In this document: positions 28,756 through 62,648 of the stretch, piece by piece
How positions within the stretch are numbered: the stretch's first letter is position 1
Layout: each line of letters begins with the position of its first letter
Assembly: GCA_033549325.1 (NCBI GenBank)
Contig: JAWSUU010000001.1
Location: forward strand, 1 to 62,648
DNA: 62,648 bases
Source of the DNA: Bacillota bacterium
GTDB taxonomy: Bacteria > Bacillota > Clostridia > Tissierellales > Dethiosulfatibacteraceae
Direction: 5' to 3'
Made by a program: the position numbers and the translations under genes
The notes under the pieces: generated by a model
Told to the model about the DNA's origin: nothing
Database searches by the model: none
The model's input: the letters and a program-made list of their open reading frames with translations, nothing else

Positions 28756-30726
28756 TTATGATATTTTTGCTCCCTCTGGAATATCTTCTAATGTTGAAAC
28801 TAAAGACAATTTTTTGCCTTTTTCGGCAGCAAGGACCATCCCTTGAGATTTTATTCCTCTAAGTTTCACCGGTTTAAGATTGTATATTACTACTACTTTT
28901 TTATCTATTAAATCCTCCGGTTTGTACCATTTTTTTATTCCTGAAACTATCTGTCTTTCTTCATCGCCAATTTTTATCTTTAGTACGTATAACTTATCGG
29001 CATTAGGATGATCTTCACAACTTAGAATTTTAGCAACTCTAAAATCTAATTTTCCAAAATCCTCAATACTAACTTCCTCAATTTCTTCTACTTTTTCTTT
29101 TGGTTTTTCTTCTACTTTTTCTTTTGGTTTTTCTTCTACTTTTTCTTTTTTGTTTTCCACAATATTATCCTCAATTTCTTTTTGCTTTTTATCTTTGTCA
29201 ATTCTAGAAAATAAAATCTCAGCTTTCCCTACTTTATCTCCTATTTTCATGCCATCAAATTTATTTAGTGAATCCCAGGTATTTATATCTGTATTAAGCT
29301 GATTTAAAATCTTTTCAGCAGTTTCTGGCATAAATGGCTGAAGTAGTACTGCTGAAAATCTGATTGATTCAAGTAAATTGTATAAAACAGTAGCTAATCT
29401 ACCTTTTTTATCTTCCTCTTTACCTAGTATCCAAGGTTGTGTTTCATCAATATACTTATTACTTCTTCTTAAAAGTTTGAATATTTCATCTAGAGAAGCA
29501 GCCACCCTTAGATCTTTCATTTTTTCCTGTAGATTTTTTGGAGTTTCCAGAGCTAAACTTATTAACTCTTTATCTATATCTTCTTTTTCTTCAGGTTTGA
29601 GAATTTCACCATCAAAATATTTGTTGACCATAGTAATTGTTCTATTAACTAAATTACCCAATATATTAGCCAGTTCAGAGTTTATTCTCTCAATTAAAAG
29701 TTCGTAAGTAATAGTTCCATCATTAGCAAAAGGCATTTCATGAAGCAAAAAATATCTAACAGCATCTACGCCAAACAAATTAACTAAGTCATCTGCATAG
29801 ATTACATTTCCTTTTGATTTACTCATCTTGCCTTCTCCTACTAATAACCAGGGATGTCCAAAAACTTGTTTAGGTAATTCTACCCCTAAAGCCATAAGTA
29901 TACTAGGCCAGTAAATAGTATGGAATCTTATTATATCTTTTCCTATCAAATGAACATCTGCCGGCCAGAATTTTTTAAATTTATCGTCGCTTTCTCCATA
30001 AGGATTGTATCCTAATCCTGTAATATAATTACTTAAAGCATCTATCCATACGTATATAACATGTCCTTCATCTATAGTTACTGGTATTCCCCAGTCAAAA
30101 CTAGTTCTTGAAACACATAAATCCTGTAAACCTGGTTTTAAAAAATTATTTAACATTTCGTTTTTTCTGGATTCCGGTTGTATGAAGTTTGGATTTTCTT
30201 CTATATGCTTAATTAATTTATCCGTATATTCACTTAGTTTAAAAAAATATGCTTCTTCCTTAGTGTTTTTAACCTCTCTACCGCAATCAGGGCATTTTCC
30301 ATCTACAAGCTGTCCTTCTGTGAAAAATGATTCACAGGGTATACAGTAGAGACCTTCATACTCATCTTTATATATGTCTCCCTGTTCATATAACTTTTTA
30401 AAAATATTTTGCACAATTTCTTTATGTTCTTTTTCAGTAGTTCTTATAAATCTATCATAGGAAGTATTCATCAAATCCCAGATTCTCTTTATTTCTCCAG
30501 CTATTTCATCAACCAATTCTTGTGGTTTTTTACCTGCTTTTTCGGCATTAATTTGAACTTTTTGTCCGTGCTCATCTGTTCCAGTTTGAAAATATACATC
30601 GTACCCCTCTAATCTTTTAAATCTCGCGATGCTATCTGCTAGTACTATCTCATAAGTATTCCCTATATGAGGTTTACCTGAAGTATAAGCGATTGCTGTG
30701 CTTATATAATATGGTTTTTTATTCAT
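28756..30726 (-). CDS. metG: methionine--tRNA ligase with C-terminal tRNA-binding (EMAP/Trbp111-like) domain
   Basis: Start moved to ATG 30726 (MNKKPYYISTAIAYTSGKPHIGN...) behind AGGAGGA. KMSKS motif and a CxxC knuckle (CPDCG). Lys/Glu repeat linker, then an OB-fold tail. Confidence 0.93.
   Translation of the reverse strand: MNKKPYYISTAIAYTSGKPHIGNTYEIVLADSIARFKRLEGYDVYFQTGTDEHGQKVQINAEKAGKKPQELVDEIAGEIKRIWDLMNTSYDRFIRTTEKEHKEIVQNIFKKLYEQGDIYKDEYEGLYCIPCESFFTEGQLVDGKCPDCGREVKNTKEEAYFFKLSEYTDKLIKHIEENPNFIQPESRKNEMLNNFLKPGLQDLCVSRTSFDWGIPVTIDEGHVIYVWIDALSNYITGLGYNPYGESDDKFKKFWPADVHLIGKDIIRFHTIYWPSILMALGVELPKQVFGHPWLLVGEGKMSKSKGNVIYADDLVNLFGVDAVRYFLLHEMPFANDGTITYELLIERINSELANILGNLVNRTITMVNKYFDGEILKPEEKEDIDKELISLALETPKNLQEKMKDLRVAASLDEIFKLLRRSNKYIDETQPWILGKEEDKKGRLATVLYNLLESIRFSAVLLQPFMPETAEKILNQLNTDINTWDSLNKFDGMKIGDKVGKAEILFSRIDKDKKQKEIEDNIVENKKEKVEEKPKEKVEEKPKEKVEEIEEVSIEDFGKLDFRVAKILSCEDHPNADKLYVLKIKIGDEERQIVSGIKKWYKPEDLIDKKVVVIYNLKPVKLRGIKSQGMVLAAEKGKKLSLVSTLEDIPEGAKIS
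29083..29150 (-). repeat. in-frame 24-nt tandem repeat (~2.8 copies) in the metG linker
   Basis: + strand unit TTCTTCTACTTTTTCTTTTGGTTT at 29083..29106 and 29107..29130, plus a partial third copy. Encodes (KPKEKVEE)n. Confidence 0.9.
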
Positions 30727-30756
30727 GCTTTGTTCCTCCTTTTTTAGTTTTATCAA

Positions 30757-31035
30757 TAATTTAAGATTTTATTAGCAATAAAAAAAGCCTCTTAATAATG
30801 TTAAGAGACGAGTTATCGCGTTACCACTCTTTTTCGTATAAACTTTGCAGTTCATACCTTAGTAGGTAAATTACCTTGGATTTATAACGTAATCCCCCCG
30901 TCACCCTCTAATTATTCAAAGATGAGGCTCCAGGACCATCTTCAGCTTAATATCTAACGCCGCCTTTCAGCTAACACGGCTCTCTTTAGAAAGATGCTTA
31001 AACCTACTCTTCCTTTCACTGCTTTTGAAGTATTA
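30757..31035 (-). promoter_or_regulatory. T-box leader (tRNA-Met-responsive transcription attenuator) of metG
   Basis: On the reverse strand: AGAGAG/GCUGAAAG stem-I elements. A candidate AUG specifier in GAAGAUGG (30939..30937). T-box sequence AGAGUGGUAACGCG (30830..30817). Terminator CUCUUAA-CAUUA-UUAAGAG plus GCUUUUUUU (30807..30781). Confidence 0.8.
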
Positions 31036-38022: not shown

Positions 38023-38733
38023 TTATCTTGCTAATGTTAACCCATATATATTTTTAACTTCAACCTTTAAGAGAGATTTCGAACATTCGTTTATAGTTGT
38101 TCCCGTTGTGTATACATCATCCACAATTAAAACATTTTTATTTTTTAGATGTTTTACAGCAAAAAATGTATTTTTAAGGTTATTTACCCTATCTTCTCTT
38201 TTTAACTGGTTTTGAGCCTTTGTATCCACTCTTCTTTCCATTAGTCTTTCACATGGTATATTTAGTTTTTTTTCCAAATATTTAGCCATAAGTTCAGATT
38301 GATTATAGCCTCTTTTTCTTTTCTTGTTTTTATGAAGAGGAACAAAAGAAATAATATCAACATTGATATCATAATTTTTAATATGTTTATATAACAATTC
38401 TCCCAACATCTTATAGTAATAAGGTTTATTATTATATTTGTAGTCTTTAATTACATCCCTTATTAATCCTTCGTATTTATATGGTGAATAGATTTTTTTG
38501 AAAGATTTCGGTTCTTCTATACACTCTATACATATTTCTCCGGAAGCAATTAATGGTTTGGAACATATTTTACAATTGTTAGGTTTTATGTTCTTAAAAC
38601 TGTATAGACATTCTTTACAAATATAATCTTCTCCTATGGTTTCATCCCAGTATCCACATATAAGGCAGGAATTTTTCTCTGGAAATATTAAATCTACTAA
38701 TCCATTAAATGGCTTTTTAATTAATTTTTTCAA
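38023..38733 (-). CDS. comFC: ComF family protein (ComFC-type phosphoribosyltransferase fold)
   Basis: 236 aa. N-terminal Cys4 zinc finger (CLICG...CKEC...CKIC...CIEC) and a C-terminal PRPP loop VLIVDDVYTTGTT. Confidence 0.8.
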   Translation of the reverse strand: MKKLIKKPFNGLVDLIFPEKNSCLICGYWDETIGEDYICKECLYSFKNIKPNNCKICSKPLIASGEICIECIEEPKSFKKIYSPYKYEGLIRDVIKDYKYNNKPYYYKMLGELLYKHIKNYDINVDIISFVPLHKNKKRKRGYNQSELMAKYLEKKLNIPCERLMERRVDTKAQNQLKREDRVNNLKNTFFAVKHLKNKNVLIVDDVYTTGTTINECSKSLLKVEVKNIYGLTLAR

Positions 38734-44012: not shown

Positions 44013-45042
44013 TTAAATATAAGGCAAAAGACTTTTCACATCAATAAAAGTGCGATAATCTTCATTTAATAATATATCCGATAAGTCGATTATAGTGTCT
44101 ATAACTGGGGTCTTAACCCCTTTTATTTTGCCTAAATTTGAAATAGGTGCAAGACCATAAGGTATATCCTCTTTAATGTATCTAGTATTTAGATTTGATG
44201 GTGCCAATCCATCCTTGTGTACTGAACTTTTTGATAATGATTTGAAAAGATTTGATTCTTCGGATAAATAAGTGCTTTGCATAATATCTTTCAAGCTCTG
44301 AAGTTCTATACCCCAAGCTCTTCCTACATCTATTCTTTCCTTATCTATTCTATCTATAATTCCAGCTATGGTTTCTGTTATACCTTCACCGTAAAAAGTC
44401 AAAATTACCTTTTTGATTTTCTATTCTACCTAGATTAAGTAGTAATACCGCTGGGTGAATAATAGGATTCATATTTAAAAGTTGGATTTCTAGATAATTT
44501 TCTTTTATATAAAATATATCCCATAATTCATTCAATATAGGAAGTATTGATTTTGATGATTCTCTGTCTAATGAAGCTATAAATACTTCTTCCTTAATCC
44601 CTTTAACAATAGTAAGGTTATCATTATATTTTCTGCAGGGATATATAAACGAACTAGTTCCTACAGCTTTAATCAGCCCTTCCTTTTCTGTACCGGTTAT
44701 CATATTGTTTAATTCCCATACTCCGTAGTTATCCGGAAAAAATACTATACTTATACTCTTATCTATATTAGAAATCATTTTATCTAGATATTTTTTTCTA
44801 CAAAAAGCAGGGACAGTTATAAAAATTAAATCAGCATCCATCATTGCTCTGTACATATCATTTGTAATTAAAGAAATAGTTCCTTTTGTACATAAGCTTC
44901 CTTTTATACTTACTTCCCAGTTTTTTCTTTCTCTATTTAACTTTTTTTCTTTAAATATTTTAACCTTATTCCCTTTACTGGCTAAATAAGCTCCTAGAGT
45001 AATTCCAACGTTACCTTCCCCTAATATACAGTATGTTTTCAT
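44013..45042 (-). pseudogene. NAD/NADP octopine/nopaline (opine) dehydrogenase family gene, split by a frameshift
   Basis: Two overlapping ORFs (45042..44386, Rossmann N-half GEGNVG; 44402..44013, C-half) together give a normal protein of about 345 aa. The frames switch at a coding-strand T5 run (44393..44397). Removing one T reads ...GRIENQKGNFDFYGEGITE... Confidence 0.7.
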
Positions 45043-45120
45043 TCTTATCACCAACTTTTAAAATAGTTATTATAATTATATCAAATAAATAATAATATTA
45101 AATAGAAATATAGTTAAATC

Positions 45121-47545: not shown

Positions 47546-47576
47546 AAAAGGTCTATCACTAAGATAGGCCTTTTTA
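47546..47576. terminator. bidirectional terminator between iorB and the GntR gene
   Basis: AAAGGTCTATC-ACTAA-GATAGGCCTTT with flanking A and T runs. The 3' arm overlaps the GntR stop codon. Confidence 0.8.
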
Positions 47577-48287
47577 ATTTAGATCTAGATCCATATAAAA
47601 TTTATATAATTCACTATTTATTATATTTTTTGAATATTCAACTATCTTGTCTTCTTCTGAATAAGTAATCTTTTCCCATAGTAGAATCGGGCTGTTTTTT
47701 TCGATTTTCATTAGTTCTTCTTCATTTTTACCGGAAATCATTGGTTCTATATATATCTTTGCTCTTTTTTGTTTTAAAAAACAGTATTCTTCAACCATAT
47801 CGTGAATAAGATTAATTTCGCTTTTTTCGATATCTAGGGATAAATAGTATTTCACCGGCAGATATACATACTCAAGGGCATTTACTTTATTGTTAATAAC
47901 CTTTGTTCTAATTATTTCATATAATTCTTCACCATTTGATATATCTAATTTTTCTGAAAGTTCTTCGTCAGCTTTTATCTTCCCTTTACTTAAAGTTTTA
48001 TGTTCGCCTTTTGTGAGAGAACTATCGTTTTCAAAACCATAAAATCTATGTTTTCTTATATCTTCTAAATTTTTTTCTGTTACAAAGGTCCCTTTACCTT
48101 GAATTCTATATACAAGTCCTTCATTTACTAAATCTCTCACTGCTGTAGTAGCAGTTATCCTACTCACATTAAAGATATCTCCCAATTCTTTTTCAGATGG
48201 AATTTTCTCTCCAGGATTGATTTTCCCTTGTTTTATATTTTCTTTAATATAATTTTTTATTTTGACGTATTGAGGTATGTTATCCAT
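47574..48287 (-). CDS. GntR family transcriptional regulator, HutC subfamily (UTRA effector domain)
   Basis: Start moved to ATG 48287 (MDNIPQYVKIKNYIKENI...) behind AAGGAGGA. HTH is PSEKELGDIFNVSRITATTAVRDLVNEGLVYRIQGKGTFV. The C-terminal 150 aa are of UTRA size. Confidence 0.8.
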   Translation of the reverse strand: MDNIPQYVKIKNYIKENIKQGKINPGEKIPSEKELGDIFNVSRITATTAVRDLVNEGLVYRIQGKGTFVTEKNLEDIRKHRFYGFENDSSLTKGEHKTLSKGKIKADEELSEKLDISNGEELYEIIRTKVINNKVNALEYVYLPVKYYLSLDIEKSEINLIHDMVEEYCFLKQKRAKIYIEPMISGKNEEELMKIEKNSPILLWEKITYSEEDKIVEYSKNIINSELYKFYMDLDLN

Positions 48288-48312
48288 AATTTCCTCCTTA
48301 TATAATGTTAAT

Positions 48313-48341
48313 ATTATAAACGACTTTTTGATATAAGTCAA
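48313..48341 (-). promoter_or_regulatory. sigma-A-type promoter of the GntR regulator
   Basis: Reverse strand: TTGACT (48341..48336), 17 nt spacer, TATAAT (48318..48313). Confidence 0.65.
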
Positions 48342-48350
48342 AATATGATA

Positions 48351-48370
48351 TATCATTTTATAAAATGATA
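48351..48370. promoter_or_regulatory. perfect 20-bp palindrome between the divergent -35 boxes (candidate GntR operator)
   Basis: TATCATTTTA|TAAAATGATA. It overlaps a second perfect 10-bp palindrome, TGATATATCA (48346..48355). A further TGATATA lies at 48329..48335. Confidence 0.6.
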
Positions 48371-48381
48371 ATATTTGCTGC

Positions 48382-48410
48382 TTTACTGAACAATTTTTAA
48401 ATGTTAAAAT
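48382..48410 (+). promoter_or_regulatory. sigma-A-type (extended -10) promoter of the giant-protein operon
   Basis: TTTACT (48382..48387), 17 nt spacer, TG-T-TAAAAT (-10 at 48405..48410). Confidence 0.55.
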
Positions 48411-48439
48411 ATTGTATATATTGCTTAGGGGAGGAAATT

Positions 48440-51400
48440 ATGAGTAGAATAACACTAAATGAACTGCACAAAGAAATACTAAACGGATTAACAGAAGAAA
48501 AGTTTTTAAAAAAACTAGATTTAACAGAAGAAAAAATTCATTCTTTAGTTTTAAACAAACACTTTGTCACCAAGCTTTCTACTTTGGTGAGCAGAGATAA
48601 AATTACCTGTCAAAATATACTTAACCTTTGTATTGATATTATGAATAACGTTTCCCAAGAAAAACATGATGACTGGCTTAATTATGCCTATAATTATATT
48701 CTCAATTTCTCTTTCCCAAATGCTGTTACTTTAGATTTAGATCCAAAATATGAAAAAGGCACACTACTATATCTTAAAATATTGAGAGTAGTATTTACTA
48801 GTGTAAAAGCAAATAGAAATTTTAATAAATTTTTAGATTTTGAATTTTTAACAGATGAAGAAATATTAAATCTTAAAAACCCGAGTGAATATACTAGGTT
48901 CTTAGAATTGTACGATAAACTCTATATCTATGAATTAATGAGATTAAATAAAGAAATTACAGGCTACAATTCACTAGACCATATAGCTGGAGTTCACCAC
49001 GTAGCTATGCATGTAGGTAAGCAGCTTGACAAAGCAGGGATCCCTATATACTTAGGTAGAGTATCCGGAGCCGCAGCTGGACATGATATAGGTAAATACG
49101 GATGCAAAGGGGAAGAACTTACTAGAGTACCCTATTTGCATTACTATTACACAGAACAGTGGTTTAGAAGATTTAATATCCCTCAAATAGGTCATATAGC
49201 TGTCAATCACTCAACCTGGGATTTAGAACTTGAAAATCTTCCTCTGGAATCTTTAGTGCTTATATATGCTGATTTTAGAGTTAAAAGCGACCCTCGAAAG
49301 AAACAGAAAAAAATGGAAATATTTGGACTTGACGAATCTTTTCAAGTTATTTTGGATAAATTAGATAATGTTGATGAAGCAAAAGAAAGAAGATACAAAA
49401 GAGTTTATGCAAAATTAAAAGACTTTGAAAATTTTATGATCAGTAAAGGTATCGATGTTTCTTTAGAAGGAGAATATAAGGAAATAGAAGAAAAAGACTC
49501 CTCTCTTATGTCTGACTATGAAGTAGTAAATAATTTCATAAATATGGCTATAAGTCATAATATAGATTTGATGTATAAATTAAGCAGCGACGAATCCTTA
49601 AGTTTAATTTTAGAAGCTGCAAGAACTGAAAAAGACTGGAAAAACATAAGAGCTTATTTGAATATATTTACAGAATACAATACTTACTTAATTCCTAAAC
49701 AAAAAATGCTTACTCTTAACTTTATGTATGAACTTTTAGTGCATAAGGAAGGTGATATAAGAAAACATGCGGCTGAGCTAATTGGTTCTATAATAGCAGG
49801 TTTTGATGATGAATACAGAAAAGAAGTCCCTAAAGACCAGGAATTAGAAAAACCTGAAACAGATAGTTTTGAACTTTGGAGTAGATATCTAGATTTGATA
49901 ATCAACCCGGATCACAAGATTATTGAAAAACATAGAGAGTGGATAGGATACTGTCTAAAAAATATGGTGGGAGAATTTTTCAAAAACTGCGATAAAGATA
50001 ATATAGACAGATACTTAGAAATTTATATAAAAACAATCAAATCTAACTTTAAAGTAGAAGAAAATATATTTTTTCTACTGGATTCACTATGGCGACTCCC
50101 TTATAGCTATGTCACCGATGAGCAGCTTAAAATAATCATCAATTTTATTGTAAATATAATGAGAGAAAATAGCAACGGTATAAATGATGACTACAACAAT
50201 CTTGTGGTGGGATTGGATACTGCTTTGCGTATTGCAGACCTGGTTGATTACAGAAATAATTCTTTAGAACCTTTAAAAGATTTTATTAGAGAGTTAAATC
50301 ATCATAACAATGTAGCTGTTTGCTTTTTAAAATATAAAATAGGATGCCATCTTCATCTTAAAGATGATGTTAAAAATTATTATAAATCAATGCTTGTTAA
50401 AACTTCTGAAAATTTATCTGAAATATTTTTGATGAACTTAAAGGCGGCTGTTCACTGGATTATGAAAGCTACCAACATCGAGTTTATAAAAGAATTCATG
50501 GAAAATATTTCACCAATGTCGAGATTACATACAGCTACTCACTTATGTAATTTAGTAAAAGTTAGTGCTGTAGAGTTTGTTAGAAACAGTGCCGGTTCAG
50601 CTTTACTTCAATTAGCTCCAATGCTGTCTTACGACCAAAGAAATGATGTATCTGTAGAGCTTTTAAGAGGTTTGGAAATTGAGGGCTATGAATTTTCCAA
50701 ATATATACCTCAGTATTTAGGAGAGTTTATGCTATATCTACCTCCTAAAGAGCTGGATGAATTTTTAGATGACTTTACCGACTATGTGAAAACTAAAAGT
50801 GGAAGAACAATACCACTAATTTTAAATACCATCAGCGTTATAGTGGAAAACTATGCAGACTATAGAGAAAGATTTGAAGAAGACGATGCTACTTTTAACG
50901 ATAGATTAAATAAAATGCTTGGAATTTTAATGTGTGGATTATCAAATTATAATTCATCAGTAAAACAAGAAGCCTTTCTATATATTGGAAAAAATATTTT
51001 TGCATCTGCTGTATTGTCTTTAGATGAAAAGAAGAAAATTTTCCAGCTAATAGGCAAAAAATTACTCACTCTACTGGCTGAAAAGGTTTCAGATGATTTG
51101 TTCTTTTTTAATAACTCTGCTTCTTTAAATCATATCTACAGATTTATTAGTGACTATAATTTCTTTGTAAGTAAACTTAATTACAAAGAAGCTAAAAAAG
51201 TAGCTTTTTTCCCGGGTACTTTTGATCCATTTTCTTTAAGTCACAAACAAATCGTAAAAGAAATCACTAAATTAGGATTTGATGTTTATCTTACTATTGA
51301 TGCCTTTTCCTGGTCTAAATTGACACAACCTAGAATGTTTAGGCGAAATATAGTTAATCTTTCTATAGCTGATGAATTAAATGTATATTTATTTCCCGAC

Positions 51401-53326
51401 AACATACCAGTAAATATAGCTAATAACAGGGATTTAGATTATTTAAAGGATTTGTTTAAAAACAAGGATTTATATCTAGTTGTAGGAAGTGATGTACTGG
51501 TCAATGCCAGTGCTTATAAAAGCAGAGCTACTAAATCTTCTATTCACTCTTTAAATCATATTATATTCAAAAGAGCTCATTCAGAAACAGAAAAAGAAGA
51601 TATTTCAAAAGCAAAAGAGGCTCAAAATAGAATAAAAGCTAAAATTATTAACTTAAAGCTACCTCTTCAATTGGAAGATATAAGCTCTTCTCAAATAAGA
51701 GAACATATTGATGAGAATAGAGACATATCAAACTTGATAGATCCACTTGCTCAACAGTATATTTACGATTACGGTTTATATTTAAGAGAACCTCAGTATA
51801 AATCTCTAATAGAGGCAAAAAGTTTAAAAATAGAGGTTATAGATAATTTAAATGAGAATATAATTAAAGAAATTGGACATCATATTTTTATACATACGGA
51901 TTTATATAAAAATACCGGTGAAAAATTTAACAGTAGAAAAATGAAACTTTTGATAATCAGAGATCATGCAAACAAGGATCAAATAGTTGCATTTTCAGCT
52001 TTTCACTATATAGAGCTGACCCAGTTGTATTCTGAATTTGAAAACACAAAGGTTACAAGCTATTTAAGAGAAAATGCAGCTGGCAAAATCATGGTAATCG
52101 ATGGATTTTACTTTAATAAAAAGGTTTCTTATTCAAATTTGGAACAGATAATAATTACTGAAACACTGTCTCACGGTTTATCAGAAAATCTAACTTTTGC
52201 AGTTTATCACAATATTTTAACTAATATAAAATCAGAAAAAATATTTGAACTTTTAAGTTTACATGGCTTTACTCAAGTTCCATCTGGAGATGATGATGTG
52301 AATGTGTATTCTGTAGATATGAGTAAAACTATATCATTAATGCTAAATATGGTGAGTTTTCTAAAAGAGCCTTTTAAAAATAACCCTATAGTAATAGACG
52401 AAATTAAAAAAGCAAGAAAAAGACTTCAAAAATCATTAGTAGAACTTTACCCGGGTTCTTTAGTTTTGTCCTTTGACAATGAAATGCTTCACCATAAGTT
52501 AATAGGAAAGATTTGTGACATAAATAACGTTCCTACAATACCTACGAAACCTAGATATTTAGGTGAGTATATGTGTGTACCTTTTGGTAATATTATGCAG
52601 GGCAAAGTTGCTCCAAATACCGTTACAAAATCTCTCCATACCGAAAAGATGTTTTATCCTGATTTAAGAGGATTTAAAGTTGGAGAATACCCTAACTACT
52701 CTACCCTGGAAAATCAAATCAAAACCATAAAATCTTTCGATAGAACGGTGATCCTAGTGGATGATCTACTCCATAAAGGATATAGAGTTAAAGCTATCGG
52801 CCCTTTATTTAAAAAAGAAGATATTCCTGTTAAAAAAATAGTAGTAGGATTATTATCAGGAAGAGGCAAAGAGCTTATGGAAATTCAAAATAATGAAGTT
52901 GACTCTGCCTATTTTATACCAAACTTAAGAAACTGGTTTAATGAAAATCTCATGTACCCGTTTTTAGGTGGGGATCATATTATGAGAAGTGATGGAAATA
53001 ACTTGAATCTAATACGTTCAATTAATCTTATTCTTCCTTATGTTGCACCTCACTTTATAAAAGATACAAATAGAGAAAAAATATTTAATTTATCAATGGT
53101 ATGTCTTGAAAACACAAAAAGTATTCTAGAAACTTTAGAAAAAGAATATCAGGAACTTTACGAAAGAAATCTTACTCTCAGCAGATTGGGTGAGGTAATA
53201 ATATCTCCAAGATATCCTGATAAAGGAAGACAAATAGATTACAAATTCAATCTTAAACCTTCTACCTTTATTATAAACGACATAGAACATCTATTAAGAT
53301 TAGAAAGAATAATCAAGGAGGAGTAG
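48440..53326 (+). CDS. giant multidomain protein: HD phosphohydrolase + HEAT-like repeats + NMNAT/cytidylyltransferase-like domain + PurF-type PRTase-like domain; function unknown
   Basis: 1,628 aa from ATG 48440, behind GGGGAGGA. The track start at 48401 lies inside the predicted -10 box. Motifs are listed in the domain features below. A single uninterrupted frame across 4.9 kb of AT-rich DNA. Confidence 0.85.
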   Translation: MSRITLNELHKEILNGLTEEKFLKKLDLTEEKIHSLVLNKHFVTKLSTLVSRDKITCQNILNLCIDIMNNVSQEKHDDWLNYAYNYILNFSFPNAVTLDLDPKYEKGTLLYLKILRVVFTSVKANRNFNKFLDFEFLTDEEILNLKNPSEYTRFLELYDKLYIYELMRLNKEITGYNSLDHIAGVHHVAMHVGKQLDKAGIPIYLGRVSGAAAGHDIGKYGCKGEELTRVPYLHYYYTEQWFRRFNIPQIGHIAVNHSTWDLELENLPLESLVLIYADFRVKSDPRKKQKKMEIFGLDESFQVILDKLDNVDEAKERRYKRVYAKLKDFENFMISKGIDVSLEGEYKEIEEKDSSLMSDYEVVNNFINMAISHNIDLMYKLSSDESLSLILEAARTEKDWKNIRAYLNIFTEYNTYLIPKQKMLTLNFMYELLVHKEGDIRKHAAELIGSIIAGFDDEYRKEVPKDQELEKPETDSFELWSRYLDLIINPDHKIIEKHREWIGYCLKNMVGEFFKNCDKDNIDRYLEIYIKTIKSNFKVEENIFFLLDSLWRLPYSYVTDEQLKIIINFIVNIMRENSNGINDDYNNLVVGLDTALRIADLVDYRNNSLEPLKDFIRELNHHNNVAVCFLKYKIGCHLHLKDDVKNYYKSMLVKTSENLSEIFLMNLKAAVHWIMKATNIEFIKEFMENISPMSRLHTATHLCNLVKVSAVEFVRNSAGSALLQLAPMLSYDQRNDVSVELLRGLEIEGYEFSKYIPQYLGEFMLYLPPKELDEFLDDFTDYVKTKSGRTIPLILNTISVIVENYADYRERFEEDDATFNDRLNKMLGILMCGLSNYNSSVKQEAFLYIGKNIFASAVLSLDEKKKIFQLIGKKLLTLLAEKVSDDLFFFNNSASLNHIYRFISDYNFFVSKLNYKEAKKVAFFPGTFDPFSLSHKQIVKEITKLGFDVYLTIDAFSWSKLTQPRMFRRNIVNLSIADELNVYLFPDNIPVNIANNRDLDYLKDLFKNKDLYLVVGSDVLVNASAYKSRATKSSIHSLNHIIFKRAHSETEKEDISKAKEAQNRIKAKIINLKLPLQLEDISSSQIREHIDENRDISNLIDPLAQQYIYDYGLYLREPQYKSLIEAKSLKIEVIDNLNENIIKEIGHHIFIHTDLYKNTGEKFNSRKMKLLIIRDHANKDQIVAFSAFHYIELTQLYSEFENTKVTSYLRENAAGKIMVIDGFYFNKKVSYSNLEQIIITETLSHGLSENLTFAVYHNILTNIKSEKIFELLSLHGFTQVPSGDDDVNVYSVDMSKTISLMLNMVSFLKEPFKNNPIVIDEIKKARKRLQKSLVELYPGSLVLSFDNEMLHHKLIGKICDINNVPTIPTKPRYLGEYMCVPFGNIMQGKVAPNTVTKSLHTEKMFYPDLRGFKVGEYPNYSTLENQIKTIKSFDRTVILVDDLLHKGYRVKAIGPLFKKEDIPVKKIVVGLLSGRGKELMEIQNNEVDSAYFIPNLRNWFNENLMYPFLGGDHIMRSDGNNLNLIRSINLILPYVAPHFIKDTNREKIFNLSMVCLENTKSILETLEKEYQELYERNLTLSRLGEVIISPRYPDKGRQIDYKFNLKPSTFIINDIEHLLRLERIIKEE
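48970..49290 (+). other. HD-domain (metal-dependent phosphohydrolase) module of the giant protein
   Basis: LDHIAGVHHVAMHVGK ... GAAAGHDIGKYG (His-Asp dyad at 49082..49087) ... LIYADFRV (Asp at 49271). This is the H...HD...D pattern of the HD superfamily. Confidence 0.7.
49700..51100 (+). other. alpha-helical HEAT/ARM-like repeat region of the giant protein (approximate limits)
   Basis: Recurrent HEAT-like units such as GDIRKHAAELIGSII, EFVRNSAGSALLQLAP and SSVKQEAFLYIGKNI. No catalytic motifs seen. Confidence 0.4.
51200..51790 (+). other. nucleotidyltransferase (NadD/NMNAT, cytidylyltransferase-like) module of the giant protein
   Basis: VAFFPGTFDPFSLSH (51200..51244) occupies the GxFxPxHxGH position. 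ISSSQIR (51680..51700) matches the ISSTxIR motif of the superfamily. Confidence 0.7.
52540..53000 (+). other. type I (PurF-like) phosphoribosyltransferase-like module of the giant protein
   Basis: DRTVILVDDLLHKGYRVKAI (VILVDDLLHKGYR = 52748..52786) aligns with the PRPP-binding loop hhhVDDxxxxGxT. It is followed by a beta-strand/loop pattern (KKIVVGLLSGRG) as in PurF. Confidence 0.6.
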
Positions 53327-53327
53327 A

Positions 53328-54569
53328 ATGTACTACTATAAATACAATAACAAGTATCTGTTATCAAAAAATGAGTATAGAAACCTGGAGAAAGTATCCC
53401 CCAACGAATGCTTCTCGAATGATGAAATTATATATTTTTTAGGTAAATTGGACCCTGAGAAATCAAAGGATAGCTTCTGTTTGTCTTGTCCTTCTTTGAT
53501 GGATATTGAGGAAGAAACCTTAGAAATTTTAAAGGAACAAAGTTATGTGGATAAAGTAAGCTATCCAATAATAAAAAAAATATACGATAGAAAAATTAAA
53601 TTTATAAATACAAATAAAAAAAATTGGAAAGAAAATTTAGATTTTGTAATGCCTAAAAAGTGGAAAATAAACATACTTGCTTTAGGAGATGTGGGAAGCA
53701 CTCTTCTTATTGGTTTAAAACTTTTAGGAAAAGATTATATAGAAAAAATAGGAATATACGACAAATCAAAAAACAACACCCTTCGATGGGAAAAAGAATT
53801 AGGTCAGATTGTTTTTCCTTTTGAAGATGGAAAACTTCCTAAAGTTGATGTAGTTGATTATGAAAATCTTTTTGACTGTGACATGTTTGTTTTTTGTGCT
53901 ACAAAGGCAGTCCCATCTTTAAATTCCAATGTCAAAGATGTTAGAATGGTTCAATTTGAAGGAAATTCGAAAATTATAGAAGAATATGCTAAGCTTGCTA
54001 GAAAGAAAAACTATAAAGGAATTTTTGCGGTAGTTTCAGATCCAGTAGATCTTCTATGTAAAAAAGCTTTCTTATCAGCTAATACAAATGAAAAAGGAGA
54101 ATTTGATGGTTTAGGCATACCCGGAGAAAGAATTAAAGGCTACGGTTTAGGAGTAATGAATGCTCGAGCAACCTACTATGCTGAAAAAAATGGAAAAACA
54201 ATCAATTATTCAAAAGAAGGTAGAGCTTTCGGACCCCATGGCAAAGGCTTAATTATCGCTAATTCTGTTGCAAACTATAATGAAGAACTATCTGAAATGT
54301 TAACCCAAAAAACAATAAAGGCTAATTTAGAAATCAGAGACTTAGGATTTAAACCTTACATAGGACCTGCATTATCCTCTGGAGCTATATCTATTATAAA
54401 CACCATTTCCAATAAATGGCACTACTCTGCTAACTTTATTGGAGGAGTTTTCATGGGTAGCAATAACAGAAACCTAGAAAGTGGTCTTGAATTCGAGAGA
54501 TTAGACCTCCCGGAGGAATTATTTATAAAAATCGAATCAACATACAATATGTTAAAGGAAATTATTTAA
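53328..54569 (+). CDS. divergent lactate/malate dehydrogenase-fold protein with ~110-aa N-terminal extension
   Basis: 413 aa. Rossmann KINILALGDVGSTLLIG (GDVG at 53685..53696), VSDPVDLL (LDH: SNPVD), GVMNARATYY (LDH: LDSARFR), and GPHG (His at 54237..54239; LDH: GEHG). The RBS AAGGAGGAG lies inside the end of the giant gene. Confidence 0.65.
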   Translation: MYYYKYNNKYLLSKNEYRNLEKVSPNECFSNDEIIYFLGKLDPEKSKDSFCLSCPSLMDIEEETLEILKEQSYVDKVSYPIIKKIYDRKIKFINTNKKNWKENLDFVMPKKWKINILALGDVGSTLLIGLKLLGKDYIEKIGIYDKSKNNTLRWEKELGQIVFPFEDGKLPKVDVVDYENLFDCDMFVFCATKAVPSLNSNVKDVRMVQFEGNSKIIEEYAKLARKKNYKGIFAVVSDPVDLLCKKAFLSANTNEKGEFDGLGIPGERIKGYGLGVMNARATYYAEKNGKTINYSKEGRAFGPHGKGLIIANSVANYNEELSEMLTQKTIKANLEIRDLGFKPYIGPALSSGAISIINTISNKWHYSANFIGGVFMGSNNRNLESGLEFERLDLPEELFIKIESTYNMLKEII

Positions 54570-55604: not shown

Positions 55605-56126
55605 TTACTTGTCTATACCTTCTCTAGATAGTACTCCTTTTTCACCGTAATAATGTTTAATTTCTTTCATTTCAGTAACTAAATCCGCATAATCTATTAA
55701 AGATTGCTCTGCATATCTACCAGTAATTATTACTTCAATGTTTTTCTTTCTATCATCTATTGTTTTAATTAAATCTTCAGATGAAAATAGTTTAAAATAT
55801 ATAGCTATAGTTGCTTCATCTAATATTACTACCTCATAATTACTTTTCGACAGTATGTTATATATCTTATTTAAACCCTTTTTTGCAGCTATAATATCCT
55901 CTTCTTTTGGATCTTCAAACACAAAACAACCTTTACCTAGCTGTTCTATAGTCAAACTGTCAAAATATTCTGTAAGTTTAGTTTCACTGTATTTCATATC
56001 TTTTACAAATTGGCCTATATATACTTTCTTTCCAGCACACAAGGCTCTAACAGCTAATCCGAAGGCTGCCGTCGTTTTACCTTTTCCATTGCCAGTATAT
56101 ACGTGTACATATCCTCTATCTTCCAT
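55605..56126 (-). CDS. cobO: cob(I)yrinic acid a,c-diamide adenosyltransferase (CobA/CobO/BtuR type)
   Basis: 173 aa. HVYTGNGKGKTTAAFG P-loop and ILDE block, typical of CobA-type ATP:corrinoid adenosyltransferases. Confidence 0.85.
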   Translation of the reverse strand: MEDRGYVHVYTGNGKGKTTAAFGLAVRALCAGKKVYIGQFVKDMKYSETKLTEYFDSLTIEQLGKGCFVFEDPKEEDIIAAKKGLNKIYNILSKSNYEVVILDEATIAIYFKLFSSEDLIKTIDDRKKNIEVIITGRYAEQSLIDYADLVTEMKEIKHYYGEKGVLSREGIDK

Positions 56127-56139
56127 CTATCTACCTTTC

Positions 56140-56883
56140 CTATATCTTTAAATTTGCCAGTAGCAAAAATCCTATCTGAGCGAATTCATTTATAAATCCT
56201 AATGTATCTCCAGTAGTACCATCTATTTTTTTAATTATTCTTTTAGTTATAATTCCAGTTAGAGCAAAGATAAGCACCATGGGTATTAACAGCATATAGT
56301 TCAATAATAATCCAATTGCAAATGCAAATATAAATGCAGAATTTCTAACATTTTTATCCGACAAGGTCACAAATTTATATCCTAAGCCTTCTTCCTCTTT
56401 TGCATAATCACTCATATATGCCGAAAGCATTGTGGCTGATTTTCCCACTATCGGCATCAACAAGATACTTTTTATACTGCTTTCTCCAAGTAATATCACA
56501 TAAGCAACCGTCACAAATATTAATCCAAGAGCACCAAAGGTTCCCAATCTACTGTCTTTCATAATTTCTAGCTGCATATCTTTTTCTCTACCACTTAAAA
56601 GTCCATCTAAGGTATCACCCAATCCGTCTAAATGTATTCCTCCTGATATCCAAAGATAGAAAAGAGTCAGAATCAAACCCACCACGTAAGTTGAATAAAT
56701 AAAGGAAAAAAACTTTAACATCCCAAGACCTATTCCTATAATTATTCCTACAACAGGCAAAAATATAATTCCTAATTTATAATCCCTATCATCAAATTCT
56801 GTTTGTTGCTTTAAAGGAATTCTTGTAAAAAATGTTATCATTAAAAATATGCTTTTTGAGCTGTTAAATAAAATATTTTTCAT
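56140..56883 (-). CDS. cobS: adenosylcobinamide-GDP ribazoletransferase (cobalamin synthase)
   Basis: 247 aa polytopic protein. FFTRIP start and GGIHLDGLGDTLDG motif. Confidence 0.85.
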   Translation of the reverse strand: MKNILFNSSKSIFLMITFFTRIPLKQQTEFDDRDYKLGIIFLPVVGIIIGIGLGMLKFFSFIYSTYVVGLILTLFYLWISGGIHLDGLGDTLDGLLSGREKDMQLEIMKDSRLGTFGALGLIFVTVAYVILLGESSIKSILLMPIVGKSATMLSAYMSDYAKEEEGLGYKFVTLSDKNVRNSAFIFAFAIGLLLNYMLLIPMVLIFALTGIITKRIIKKIDGTTGDTLGFINEFAQIGFLLLANLKI

Positions 56884-56892
56884 ATATTCCTC

Positions 56893-57642
56893 CTAAGTGT
56901 ATATACCAATCCTTTCAATAGGTTTATTAACAAGCTTTTTAATTTCTTCAATAGAAATAATATCTTTATCTATTGTTGCTATACAGCAGGTTGCTGGTCC
57001 TGAAGATTTTTCAATGTTTATTTTTTTATTTTTATAGAATTTTAAATTTAACTTCCTATTCTTAGAGATATTTTTCGATTCATATTTAATCCCTTTTGAT
57101 CCTACGGGAACTATATCAACAACACCTTTAATACTTCTAAGAACTCTAACAGTTGAAGCATCAATGTTTTCACTTTGATTTATCAGCACTTCTTCTCCTA
57201 CCTTAGGTTTTCCTACTAAAATTAGTTCGTTTTGAGATTTAGTATTATAGAATTTAAAATCTTTAACTTTTTTATATCCTATTGCTACCATCCCTAATGA
57301 TGTTTGATAGGTTTTAAAGTTCTCTTCAGTACTTCCCGTAAGCTTTATACTATCATCAGAATAGTTTTCATTTAGATATTTATTAATTCCCTCTATTATC
57401 ATCTTTCCAGTATCATTCATTTCGGCACAAACATTATTCACAATAACTTTTGGAGTTACTCCCAAAGCTTCTAGTTCAGAAGTTATAACATTTACGGTAT
57501 AGAATCCGGTTATTTCAGGAGGAACTTTAAATTCATCCATTTCTTTTAATCCTATGCCCCCGCTGGAATCACATGCTATAAAAATTTTCAAATCATTTTC
57601 TAAATCTATTACAGATACATCTCTATAATTTTCTTCCTTCAT
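56893..57642 (-). CDS. PurM/ThiL-fold protein in the cob cluster, putative alpha-ribazole kinase (CblS-like)
   Basis: 249 aa. IACDSSGGIG N-terminal motif reminiscent of AIR-synthase-related kinases. Wedged between cobU and cobS. The assignment rests on memory of CblS and on context. Confidence 0.45.
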   Translation of the reverse strand: MKEENYRDVSVIDLENDLKIFIACDSSGGIGLKEMDEFKVPPEITGFYTVNVITSELEALGVTPKVIVNNVCAEMNDTGKMIIEGINKYLNENYSDDSIKLTGSTEENFKTYQTSLGMVAIGYKKVKDFKFYNTKSQNELILVGKPKVGEEVLINQSENIDASTVRVLRSIKGVVDIVPVGSKGIKYESKNISKNRKLNLKFYKNKKINIEKSSGPATCCIATIDKDIISIEEIKKLVNKPIERIGIYT

Positions 57643-57644
57643 AT

Positions 57645-58229
57645 CTACCTCTCGTCAAATTTTTCTTCAAGACTTTTTATATCTATTCCTATACCGGATA
57701 CGGTCAAATATACTTTGTCAGATCTATCTGAAATATACTGATTGACTCTTCCTGCTGTATCTCTATACATTCTGGTAAATCTATTAATTGGTACTATTCC
57801 CATGCCTATTTCATTAGATACTAATACTGCTATTTTTCCCTGGTTTTTTATTAAGGTAATTAATTCATCTATGTCTTCAATTATTTTTTTTTCTATTTTA
57901 TCATATTCTAATATTTCCGTATTATCGTCTAATTCTTCTTCTACAAATACGTTTGATATCATAACTGTAATACAATCCAGAAGTACTATGTCAGATTTTT
58001 TAAAATTTTCAAATTCTTCTAATTCTTTGAAGTCTTTATATTTTTCTATCAAAAGCCAATCATCAGGTCTATCTTCTTTATGTTTTTTTATTCTATCTTT
58101 CATCTCTTCATCAAAGGGTACTGAAGTAGCTAAATAAAGAACCTTACCCTCCTCTGTTTTACATATTTTCTCAGCAAAATTGCTTTTACCGCTTCTAGCA
58201 CCACCTGTAACTAAAATCACTTCACTCAT
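57645..58229 (-). CDS. cobU: adenosylcobinamide kinase / adenosylcobinamide-phosphate guanylyltransferase
   Basis: 194 aa. VTGGARSGKS P-loop. Size and C-terminal blocks typical of CobU/CobP. Confidence 0.85.
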   Translation of the reverse strand: MSEVILVTGGARSGKSNFAEKICKTEEGKVLYLATSVPFDEEMKDRIKKHKEDRPDDWLLIEKYKDFKELEEFENFKKSDIVLLDCITVMISNVFVEEELDDNTEILEYDKIEKKIIEDIDELITLIKNQGKIAVLVSNEIGMGIVPINRFTRMYRDTAGRVNQYISDRSDKVYLTVSGIGIDIKSLEEKFDER

Positions 58230-61302: not shown

Positions 61303-62648
61303 TTAATCTACTCCTTTATTGTTTAATATATATTTTAATTCATTGAAAAATAATGATTCTTTTCCGCTTGATAAAACGTGGAGACTTTCTCTTGCTCTTG
61401 TCATACCAACGTAAAAAATTCTTCTTTCTTCTTCCAGAGTTTTTTCAAAATCAATTTCTTCTCTGTTTTCAGCAGGAAACTCTCCATGGTTATTGTCTAT
61501 TAAAAATACATTATCATACTCTAATCCTTTGGCACTGTGTATGGATGATAACACTACCTCTGCATCTCTGTTGTTTGATAATTCTAATCTGTTTTTTAAT
61601 TCAGACAATTTACCTTCAAATTCATGAATGTTTTTTATTTCATCTCCCAATTCCTTTAATATATCTAAAATAACCTTGGCATTTGAATATCTTATAATTC
61701 CATTTTCTTCCAATCTGTATAAATAATCTAGGTAATCCATTTCATAAAGCAGAAATTCGATACCCTCTTTAATATCCAACTTTGAAAGTTCAAGTATATT
61801 TTCTTTAAATCTGCTTATATTCTTTTCCAGCCTTTTATCTGTATCAAAGTACATGCCTAATCTTTCGTTTATACTTCCTTCTCCGTTGACTAGGAACTGA
61901 GCCATATTTTTATTAAAGTAAGAATTACATTTATAATAAATTCTTTTAAAGGAATCTTTGTCTCTACCATCTCTACTTAATTTAAAGAAAGCAATTATAT
62001 CCTTTAAAATATTGTTGTTAAAAAAATTATCTACAGAATCTTTAATATAAAAGTCTATATTCTCTTTTAATAATAAGTTTGCCGGCAATATAGCTGAAAC
62101 ATTGTATCTATATAGTATACCAGTGGTCTTCTCTGTGTTAAGTTTATCTTTTATATATTCTACAGATTCTTTTTTGTTTTCTATTTTTATTATATTTATA
62201 GGATTGATTTCTTCTTTGTTTGAAATTATTTTCTTTTGATATCTTAATTTATTGCGTTTTATAAATTTAGATGCAGCCTTAACAATATTTTTATCAGAGC
62301 GATAATTCTTACTAAGATAGTAAATTTTACCCTCAGGATAATCTTCCTTAAAATTTAACAAAAACTCAGGATAACTTCCTCTAAATGAGTAAATAGACTG
62401 ATCATCATCCCCAACCATGAAAATATTATCTCTGGATATCATTTTAATTATTAAATGCTGAATTTTTGAAGTATCCTGAACTTCATCGATTTGAATATAA
62501 TCGTATTTGTTTATTAATCTATCTCTTTGTACTTTGCTGTTTCTTAAAATTTTATAAGCATATATAAGTATATCATCAAAGTCGATAAAATTATTTTTTC
62601 TTTTGAATTTTTCGTATTTGTCAAATATCTCATCAAATTTTCTAATAT
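61303..62648 (-). CDS. UvrD/PcrA-like SF1A helicase, 3' part (continues beyond window end)
   Basis: The reading frame stays open upstream of the track's Met. The reverse strand reads ...IDEVQDTSKIQHLIIKMISRDNIFMVGDDDQSIYSFRG (motifs II and III). The C-terminus has SSIHSAKGLEYDNVF and FYVGMTRA (motifs V and VI). Confidence 0.75.
   Translation of the reverse strand, partial: IRKFDEIFDKYEKFKRKNNFIDFDDILIYAYKILRNSKVQRDRLINKYDYIQIDEVQDTSKIQHLIIKMISRDNIFMVGDDDQSIYSFRGSYPEFLLNFKEDYPEGKIYYLSKNYRSDKNIVKAASKFIKRNKLRYQKKIISNKEEINPINIIKIENKKESVEYIKDKLNTEKTTGILYRYNVSAILPANLLLKENIDFYIKDSVDNFFNNNILKDIIAFFKLSRDGRDKDSFKRIYYKCNSYFNKNMAQFLVNGEGSINERLGMYFDTDKRLEKNISRFKENILELSKLDIKEGIEFLLYEMDYLDYLYRLEENGIIRYSNAKVILDILKELGDEIKNIHEFEGKLSELKNRLELSNNRDAEVVLSSIHSAKGLEYDNVFLIDNNHGEFPAENREEIDFEKTLEEERRIFYVGMTRARESLHVLSSGKESLFFNELKYILNNKGVD

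Follow-up and report, generated by a model that had tools for sequence, protein, structure and literature searches.

A giant HD, HEAT/ARM, NadD-like and phosphoribosyltransferase-like fusion protein encoded at the head of a three-gene operon in Clostridia

The stretch of 62,648 nucleotides analysed here (contig JAWSUU010000001.1 of assembly GCA_033549325.1, from a member of the Bacillota; hereafter the window) encodes a giant protein of 1,628 amino acids (aa) that consists of five modules: an HD domain, a HEAT/ARM solenoid, a NadD-like nucleotidyltransferase, a degenerate GNAT-like domain and a type I phosphoribosyltransferase (PRT)-like domain. Its gene opens a compact operon of three genes, conserved across Clostridia, in which genes for a lactate dehydrogenase (LDH)-like protein and an FMN-reductase-like flavoprotein follow. 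The family to which the giant protein belongs is uncharacterised, having no characterised orthologue, and probably represents a nucleotide-cofactor system new to study. Tentatively, we favour the interpretation that the NadD-like module may make an adenylylated NAD-type cofactor for, or with, the two redox partners.

The giant gene and its operon

The giant gene, its modules and its two partner genes are as follows:

48429..48435, + strand: ribosome-binding site GGGGAGG, 5-11 nt 5' of the ATG at 48440 (read from the sequence)
48440..53326, + strand: giant open reading frame (ORF), complete, coding for the multidomain protein of 1,628 aa and closed by a stop codon at 53324-53326 (ORF listing and translation)
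48440..49474, + strand: N-terminal all-helical region with HD phosphohydrolase domain, aa 1-345 (Pfam, PDB profile matches, model)
49502..51169, + strand: predicted HEAT/ARM-type alpha-solenoid of ~555 aa, aa 355-910 (AlphaFold model and Foldseek)
51188..51790, + strand: NadD/NMNAT-like nucleotidyltransferase of the HIGH superfamily, aa 917-1117 (TIGR00482, PF01467, motif conservation)
51830..52354, + strand: GNAT-like domain, aa 1131-1305, poorly conserved (Foldseek)
52355..53323, + strand: type-I-PRT-like C-terminal domain, aa 1306-1628, with an alpha/beta core at about aa 1366-1545 (profile matches, motifs)
53328..54569, + strand: partner 1, LDH-like NAD-type dehydrogenase of 413 aa, starting 1 nt after the giant stop codon
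54569..55603, + strand: partner 2, two-domain FMN-reductase-like flavoprotein of 344 aa, its start overlapping the stop of partner 1

The giant ORF is a single unbroken frame on the forward strand, with its longest possible start at 48401 and its end at 53326. The ATG at 48440 is the supported start, because GGGGAGG precedes it and because the resulting 1,628 aa fit the lengths of homologues (1,616-1,630 aa). The G+C content of the window is 30%, at which stops would make up about 8% of random codons, and therefore a frame of 1,628 codons is not explicable by chance (probability ~e^-135 by our own arithmetic). The ORF listing and translation bear out the single uninterrupted ORF proposed by the first-pass annotation, which had been made from the sequence alone, and the positions that it had given for four motifs proved exact on translation: the HD dyad (aa 215-216; 49082..49087), PGTFDPFSLSH (aa 925-935; 51212..51244), ISSSQIR (aa 1081-1087; 51680..51700) and, in the phosphoribosyl pyrophosphate (PRPP)-loop region, VILVDDLLHKGYR (aa 1437-1449; 52748..52786).

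Homologues are numerous: 7,471 clusters at 90% identity match the giant protein, the best 120 of which comprise 1,552-1,651 aa at 95-99% query coverage, and among representatives at 50% identity there are 703 matching clusters, 219 of them below 1e-30. Scanning one genome per species gave at least 401 matching stretches. Almost all of the named hosts are Clostridia (Sedimentibacter, Tissierellales, Anaerovorax, Alkaliphilus, Caloramator, Clostridium, Peptoclostridium, Formimonas); Hominibacterium and Acetoanaerobium are hosts too and, like Sedimentibacter, Anaerovorax, Clostridium and Alkaliphilus, are examples of gut and amino-acid-fermenting Clostridia. A few metagenome-assembled genomes carry other phylum labels. 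The architecture is thus conserved far beyond the source genome, which speaks against a chimeric assembly. The database names of these homologues are only 'cytidyltransferase', 'nicotinate-nucleotide adenylyltransferase' or 'hypothetical', the first of which agrees with what the first-pass annotation had said of giant clostridial ORFs, so that a protein among the largest in its host genomes is annotated by one of its five modules. The statement that it has no characterised counterpart also stands for PDB sequences, four protein-family libraries and the full-text literature: the literature search returned nothing on the family, and searching the PDB with the whole protein as a single sequence gave marginal NadD and PPAT matches only.

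The giant gene is chromosomal. No copies were found in phage and plasmid collections, where the sole 'plasmid' match is to the Acetoanaerobium noterae chromosome, and a role in anti-phage defence or a mobile element was rejected, the PADLOC defence models giving a single weak match, in which the PRPP loop aligns with the PRTase-like ShosT (E 0.006). The matching PLSDB record (NZ_CP154629.1; loci L091 and L092) is a 2.63-Mb circular replicon filed as a plasmid with 4 features annotated; it carries nadD-yqeK and other chromosomal genes, and is evidently the A. noterae chromosome.

Neighbourhoods were compared for 80 loci with the giant gene. An LDH-like gene lies downstream in 76 of the 80 and an FMN_red gene in 70, in the same order and orientation, and some of the loci without detected partners end close to the giant gene. 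The LDH-like partner has weak matches to Pfam Ldh_1_N and the NCBIfam L-LDH model and, in a PDB alignment to L-LDH, keeps the equivalents of R109, R171 and H195; the flavoprotein partner matches Pfam FMN_red (E 3e-19). The LDH-like partner varies in form, as judged from four other loci (L041, L055, L087, L099) and the window gene at 53328..54569. It has a long form of ~415 aa, with an N-terminal extension of ~110 aa, and a short form of ~310-330 aa. The flavoprotein partner has an extra, unassigned N-terminal domain of ~160 aa with a conserved ILFAVE...GC.F.G.P..EAT motif.

Evidence for the five modules

Conservation of motifs was counted in an alignment of 80 sequences, namely the window protein and 79 full-length representatives at 28-48% identity. 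The nucleotidyltransferase module aligns end to end with the 190-aa NadD profile TIGR00482 (E 3.5e-14 to 1.2e-15, 53.3-58.1 bits) and exceeds the gathering cut-off of Pfam CTP_transf_like (PF01467; E 3e-5, 24.6 bits against 21), matches that confirm the nucleotidyltransferase proposed by the first-pass annotation; there is also a weak match to TIGR00125. Both family motifs, FDPF(S/T)x(G/S)H and ISS(T/S)xIR, are conserved, with the last His of (S/T)xGH kept in 71 of the 80 sequences and the serines of ISSTxIR in 66-67, and a GxD motif is conserved as well. These features place the module in the HIGH superfamily, as defined by (H/T)xGH, ISxxxxR and the PF01467 score.

The NadD profiles are the top matches, and some homologues are named nicotinate-nucleotide adenylyltransferase, which would suit a housekeeping nicotinate mononucleotide (NaMN) adenylyltransferase with decorative extra domains. 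That reading is extremely improbable and already largely refuted. The TIGR00482 score is about half the equivalog cut-off of 112.45 bits, the NF000840 score is 41.7-48.3 bits against a cut-off of 150, and NadD equivalog cut-offs as a whole span 112-197 bits. When aligned with true NadD, the giant protein lacks 10 residues at the PPHK loop, where it reads FSWSK, and does not conserve the SYTxDT segment; loop and segment are conserved in NadD, as the alignment shows, and we take them to bind the mononucleotide. The domain also differs from NadD in sitting inside a 1,628-aa chain, and relatives in which its motifs have decayed still have intact ORFs. Finally, the A. noterae replicon carries, ~0.55 Mb from the three-gene set, a separate true nadD followed by yqeK, whose products score 184 bits (TIGR00482) and 240.5 bits (NF000840) for NadD and 150 bits (TIGR00488, cut-off 70) for YqeK. 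The giant protein is therefore not the housekeeping NadD; it is additional to the nadD-yqeK pair.

The N-terminal module had been noted as an H...HD...D arrangement, and this is borne out by Pfam HD matches in family members, by PDB profile matches and by conservation of the predicted metal ligands: H186 is kept in 64 of the 80 sequences, and H215, D216, H257 and D278 in 73-74. PF01966 is matched by 12 of 15 family members (best E 1.9e-5), whereas the window sequence alone has no HD match in Pfam; in the PDB, the family profile matches 1xx7, an HD structure, at E 0.0097 and 4mcw, an HD-GYP structure, at E 0.48. Ligands and profile match together assign the module to the HD phosphohydrolases. 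Its identification as YqeK, an Ap4A hydrolase, was rejected, as TIGR00488 gave no match at E<=1.

Between the HD and nucleotidyltransferase modules, the ~500 aa of HEAT-like repeats seen earlier are supported as a predicted solenoid of ~550 aa. The AlphaFold model of aa 1-925 is all-helical (pLDDT 86, pTM 0.81), with stacked helical hairpin repeats, and Foldseek relates it to CAND1, the PP2A A-subunit, karyopherins and designed armadillo proteins. Among PDB structures there were 56 matches at E<=1e-3, the best 50 of which are dominated by HEAT/ARM proteins, so that this search is silent on the HD part. Two homologues of the giant protein carry a Pfam HEAT annotation.

The segment of ~160 aa that follows the nucleotidyltransferase had been described as of unclear fold; model and Foldseek show the fold to be GNAT-like. 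The model of aa 1131-1628 (pLDDT 76) mostly matches GNAT acetyltransferases in the PDB and BFVD (all matches with E<=0.001), among them AtaT, NatD and GCN5 with a Foldseek probability of 1.0 and TM-scores of ~0.5-0.6 relative to the target; the best 50 matches in each database are filled with GNAT proteins, and the comparison is silent on the PRT-like part. The likeness is one of fold. Unlike these enzymes, the domain has no Q/RxxGxG/A acetyl-CoA pyrophosphate-binding loop at its place between beta4 and alpha3 (FNKKVSYSNLEQ lies between strand 87-95 and helix 104-118 of the model, with no Gly-rich loop), there is no acetyltransferase match in a Pfam search of the giant protein, and its conservation in the alignment is the lowest of all modules. 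In some clades it is seemingly shortened, the region unaligned by BLASTP there being about half as long. We read its role as probably structural.

Evidence that the C-terminal domain is PRT-like is weak but consistent. Its motifs are CVPFG, PNTVTKxLHTEK, LVDDLLHKGYR and YPFxGGD, and 15 of 21 family members match Pfam Pribosyltran (PF00156; best E 2.1e-5), the window protein itself reaching 12.8-15.7 bits against a gathering cut-off of 26.3. The profile matches in the PDB are to PRTase, PRPP synthetase, HPRT and OPRT and are weak (E 0.037-1.6), with alignments confined to the surroundings of the PRPP loop; Pfam and PDB matches cover only ~40-60 residues. The weak ShosT match at this loop points to a PRT as well. 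With type I PRT-fold proteins (HPRT, OPRT, PRPP synthetase, PurR/PyrR) the domain shares the hydrophobic strand, the acidic pair (in VILVDD, D1441 in 77 of the 80 sequences and D1442 in 72), a glycine-containing loop and the helix; its best PDB and Pfam matches are all to PRT families, and the model of aa 1131-1628 has around the loop the beta-alpha pattern expected of a PRT. It differs from them in the 5-phosphate motif (D/S)TGxT, HKGYR taking the place of TGxT in LVDDLLHKGYR, and in the shortness and sub-gathering scores of the matches. The PRPP-loop module of the first-pass annotation is therefore retained as type-I-PRT-like, with a non-canonical loop and putative catalysis. Its 'PurF-type' label is not: the domain ahead is GNAT-like, there is no GATase or PurF match in Pfam or NCBIfam, and a PurF-type amidophosphoribosyltransferase was rejected for want of an N-terminal Ntn glutaminase domain.

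A 236-aa ORF elsewhere in the window (38023..38733, - strand) has a canonical PRPP loop (VLIVDDVYTTGTT) near its C-terminus and may be ComF-like; when the PRT-like profile was compared with it by hhalign, only the 25-residue PRPP loop aligned, at a probability of 2%.

Variant classes and proposed function

Homologues fall into classes that differ in modules, motifs and partners:

Class I: full length with HD; motifs intact; LDH-like and FMN_red genes downstream
Class I': ~1,075 aa, HD absent; intact transferase motifs; LDH-like and FMN_red genes present (L087, L099)
Class II: 1,065-1,300 aa, no HD (HEAT, NadD-like, PRT-like); no LDH-like or FMN_red genes (L082, L083, L084-86, L088-90, L096-97, L098)
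Class III: 1,553-1,591 aa, ORF intact; HD ligands and ISSTxIR lost; both partners absent (L080, L093-L095)

In class II the transferase motifs are often eroded (final His replaced by Asp, ISST lost), and a gene for a PEP-synthase-like PPDK_N protein of ~850-900 aa always lies upstream, overlapping the class II gene by up to 8 nt or ending 2-4 nt from it; this arrangement was seen in six lineages. The sole recognisable part of this protein is the PEP-synthase/PPDK_N ATP-grasp domain; it has no homology to the HD/N-terminal region, and an origin of the pair by gene fission was rejected. In class III, (S/T)xGH is also lost in two of the four relatives, and the synteny CarD-YacL-DUF421-DUF4363, the ancestral one, is as in class I Sedimentibacter (DUF421 and DUF4363 are absent in L094); these proteins may be pseudoenzymes in which solenoid and PRT-like domain are all that is left. 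The motifs of the PRT-like domain (VPG, PxxxTK, LVDD, YPxGG) are kept in every class, as are those of no other module. The core shared by the whole superfamily is the PRT-like domain; HD, which whole clades lack, is an accessory to the unit of transferase and partners. In this still small sample, the integrity of the transferase tracks the presence of the two redox partners.

The interpretation that we tentatively favour, an NAD-type cofactor made by the NadD-like module, was chosen because of this coupling and because of the chemistry of the HIGH superfamily, whose members transfer AMP or CMP onto a phosphate. With ATP as the donor of AMP, the module would adenylylate the phosphate of a 5-phosphoribosyl-type compound, yielding a pyrophosphate-linked dinucleotide cofactor of the NAD type that the LDH-like and flavoprotein partners would use or process. 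The HD module could hydrolyse the product or a by-product, as turnover or editing, so that a single chain would carry out both synthesis and breakdown, in the manner of NadM-Nudix, SpoT or GlnD. The PRT-like module would bind the phosphoribosyl precursor and, as we lean towards, make the mononucleotide from PRPP; the solenoid may dock the partner proteins, and the GNAT-like domain may be structural.

Several points weigh against this interpretation. The NadD scores lie below cut-off and the PPHK loop is lacking, so that the acceptor need not be a pyridine nucleotide. The PRT-like loop has no TGxT, and the fold assignment there rests on profile matches that are weak though consistent. Retention of the PRT-like domain in clades with eroded transferase motifs means that the modules need not act in sequence. 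The argument from coupling draws on small numbers, namely four loci that lack the partners and two that have them but lack HD, and contact between the giant protein and its partners is inferred from gene order.

The first-pass annotation had pictured a self-contained factory or turnover machine for a non-canonical (di)nucleotide, in which base and PRPP would give a mononucleotide that is then nucleotidylated and hydrolysed. The folds that this model called for were recovered, and neither the nucleotidyltransferase nor the PRT-like module occurs without the other, as would suit a PRT acting ahead of an adenylyltransferase. Its remaining parts fared less well: HD is accessory; the PRT-like domain persists where nucleotidyltransferase motifs have decayed, and therefore the three activities need not form a linear chain; and the constancy of the two redox partners does not agree with a self-contained system. 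An extended form of the model, which we consider decidedly unlikely, is that the three proteins make, use and destroy a non-canonical redox dinucleotide as a 'private cofactor' of anaerobic Clostridia. The PRT-like domain would join a base to PRPP and the NadD-like domain would adenylylate the mononucleotide; the dehydrogenase and the flavoprotein would use the product as a specific hydride carrier, HD would turn it over, and in the class II sister clade the same PRT product would instead pass to the PEP-synthase-like ATP-grasp enzyme.

Other functions can be envisaged from the same features. PurR and PyrR have PRT-fold sensor domains, and the PRT-like module could likewise be a non-catalytic sensor of nucleotides or PRPP that controls opposing transferase and HD activities, while the solenoid holds the two redox enzymes and their activity or cofactor loading is tuned to nucleotide status. 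The strong conservation of a PRPP loop that is nevertheless non-canonical (HKGYR for xTGxT) would be in keeping with a sensor, as would the retention of this module alone in every clade, including those with eroded transferases, the typical use of HEAT solenoids as protein-docking scaffolds, and the presence of RelQ-like, IMP dehydrogenase or MgtE genes nearby in some lineages. However, no DNA- or RNA-binding output domain is present, and the putative pyrophosphate-loop and flexible-loop motifs (CVPFG, PNTVTKxLHTEK) and the DD pair are conserved as catalytic elements would be; we regard a sensor as rather unlikely. That the nucleotidyltransferase is an FMN adenylyltransferase, loading or remodelling the flavin of the partner with HD as the reverse pyrophosphatase, seems quite improbable. 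Archaeal RibL-type FAD synthetases do belong to the HIGH superfamily, transferase integrity tracks the flavoprotein, and the weak TIGR00125 match would suit such an enzyme; the best profile matches are nevertheless all NadD, and both the LDH-like partner and the PRT-like domain would be left unexplained.

Adenylylation of a partner protein, with HD removing the group and the solenoid serving as substrate clamp, would parallel GlnE, GlnD or Fic/de-AMPylase pairs. It would account for a synthetase and an HD hydrolase on one chain, for the long docking solenoid, and for the joint loss of HD residues and ISSTxIR where the partners are lost. However, GlnE and GlnD are of the different pol-beta fold, and to our knowledge the characterised transferases of the HIGH/(H/T)xGH fold act on small phosphorylated molecules or carboxylates (CitC) and not on protein side chains; a protein-modifying role is accordingly very improbable.

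The family belongs, as a variant with unexplored operon logic, to the known class of nucleotide-cofactor enzymes that pair a synthetase with a hydrolase. NadM-Nudix and the nadD-yqeK pair likewise combine an NMNAT-type transferase with a hydrolase for nucleotide pyrophosphate or phosphoester bonds, and in NadM-Nudix the hydrolase was proposed to regulate NAD levels, according to PMC9503650, which cites PMC2258087. The giant system differs in that its hydrolase is a non-YqeK HD domain, in the 550-aa solenoid between hydrolase and transferase, and in the additional GNAT-like and PRT-like modules and two redox partners. The logic of PRT followed by adenylyltransferase is shared with the two-step NAD salvage by NadV (a PRTase) and NadM or NadR, and with the phage NARP2 pathway, as described in PMC9503650 and PMC13464706. 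The catalytic domain of NadV-type enzymes is a TIM barrel (PMC9503650), whereas the C-terminal domain of the giant protein is type-I-PRT-like with a non-canonical PRPP loop, and the giant gene is chromosomal, absent from phages and constantly accompanied by redox enzymes. A new dinucleotide or cofactor-turnover route would add a piece to the redox metabolism of anaerobes. Even without a new cofactor, the analysis corrects a misleading 'NadD' or 'cytidyltransferase' annotation, and the comparative pattern of partner pairing, motif decay without partners and swap to an ATP-grasp enzyme makes a vague annotation testable.

Neighbouring genes and other features of the window

Upstream of the operon lies one further gene:

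47574..48356, - strand: divergent GntR/HutC-family regulator (Pfam GntR and UTRA)

A GntR gene lies next to the giant gene in 7 of the 80 loci, only in the closest relatives, and was rejected as a general feature; the conserved set is that of the giant, LDH-like and FMN_red genes. Rfam searches upstream of the giant gene, both in the window and at six diverse loci, found no riboswitch, and sigma-70 promoter sites were no more numerous than in shuffled sequence. Flanks beyond the three genes are lineage-specific, with genes for FAA hydrolase, glutamate dehydrogenase, MgtE, RelQ-like proteins and IMP dehydrogenase. A RelQ-like small alarmone synthetase, IMP dehydrogenase or the Mg2+ transporter MgtE is encoded near the three-gene set in some lineages (L010, L034, L036, L037, L045; L013 and others; L041, L043, L048). 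Such neighbours, which are not conserved family-wide, hint at purine or alarmone metabolism.

Downstream, a convergent cobamide nucleotide-loop cluster abuts the operon of the window (55605..58229, - strand), comprising genes for a CobO/BtuR-type adenosyltransferase and CobS, an unassigned 249-aa ORF and a CobU gene; its synteny is limited to close relatives (3-7 of the 80 loci). A frame change near 44396 divides an opine/octopine-dehydrogenase-like gene (44013..45054, - strand) into two overlapping ORFs, one of 222 aa and one of 129 aa. The change is either a frameshift, making the gene a pseudogene, or a sequencing error; the orthologue in locus L002 is a single protein of 342 aa. Near the end of the window, a 379-aa ORF (61303..62442, - strand) matches only residues ~237-618 of PcrA/UvrD-type helicases, lacks the N-terminal ATPase part and may be split or truncated there. 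A T-box leader (30801..31028, - strand; 109 bits, above the gathering score) lies upstream of an ORF of 666 aa (28756..30756).

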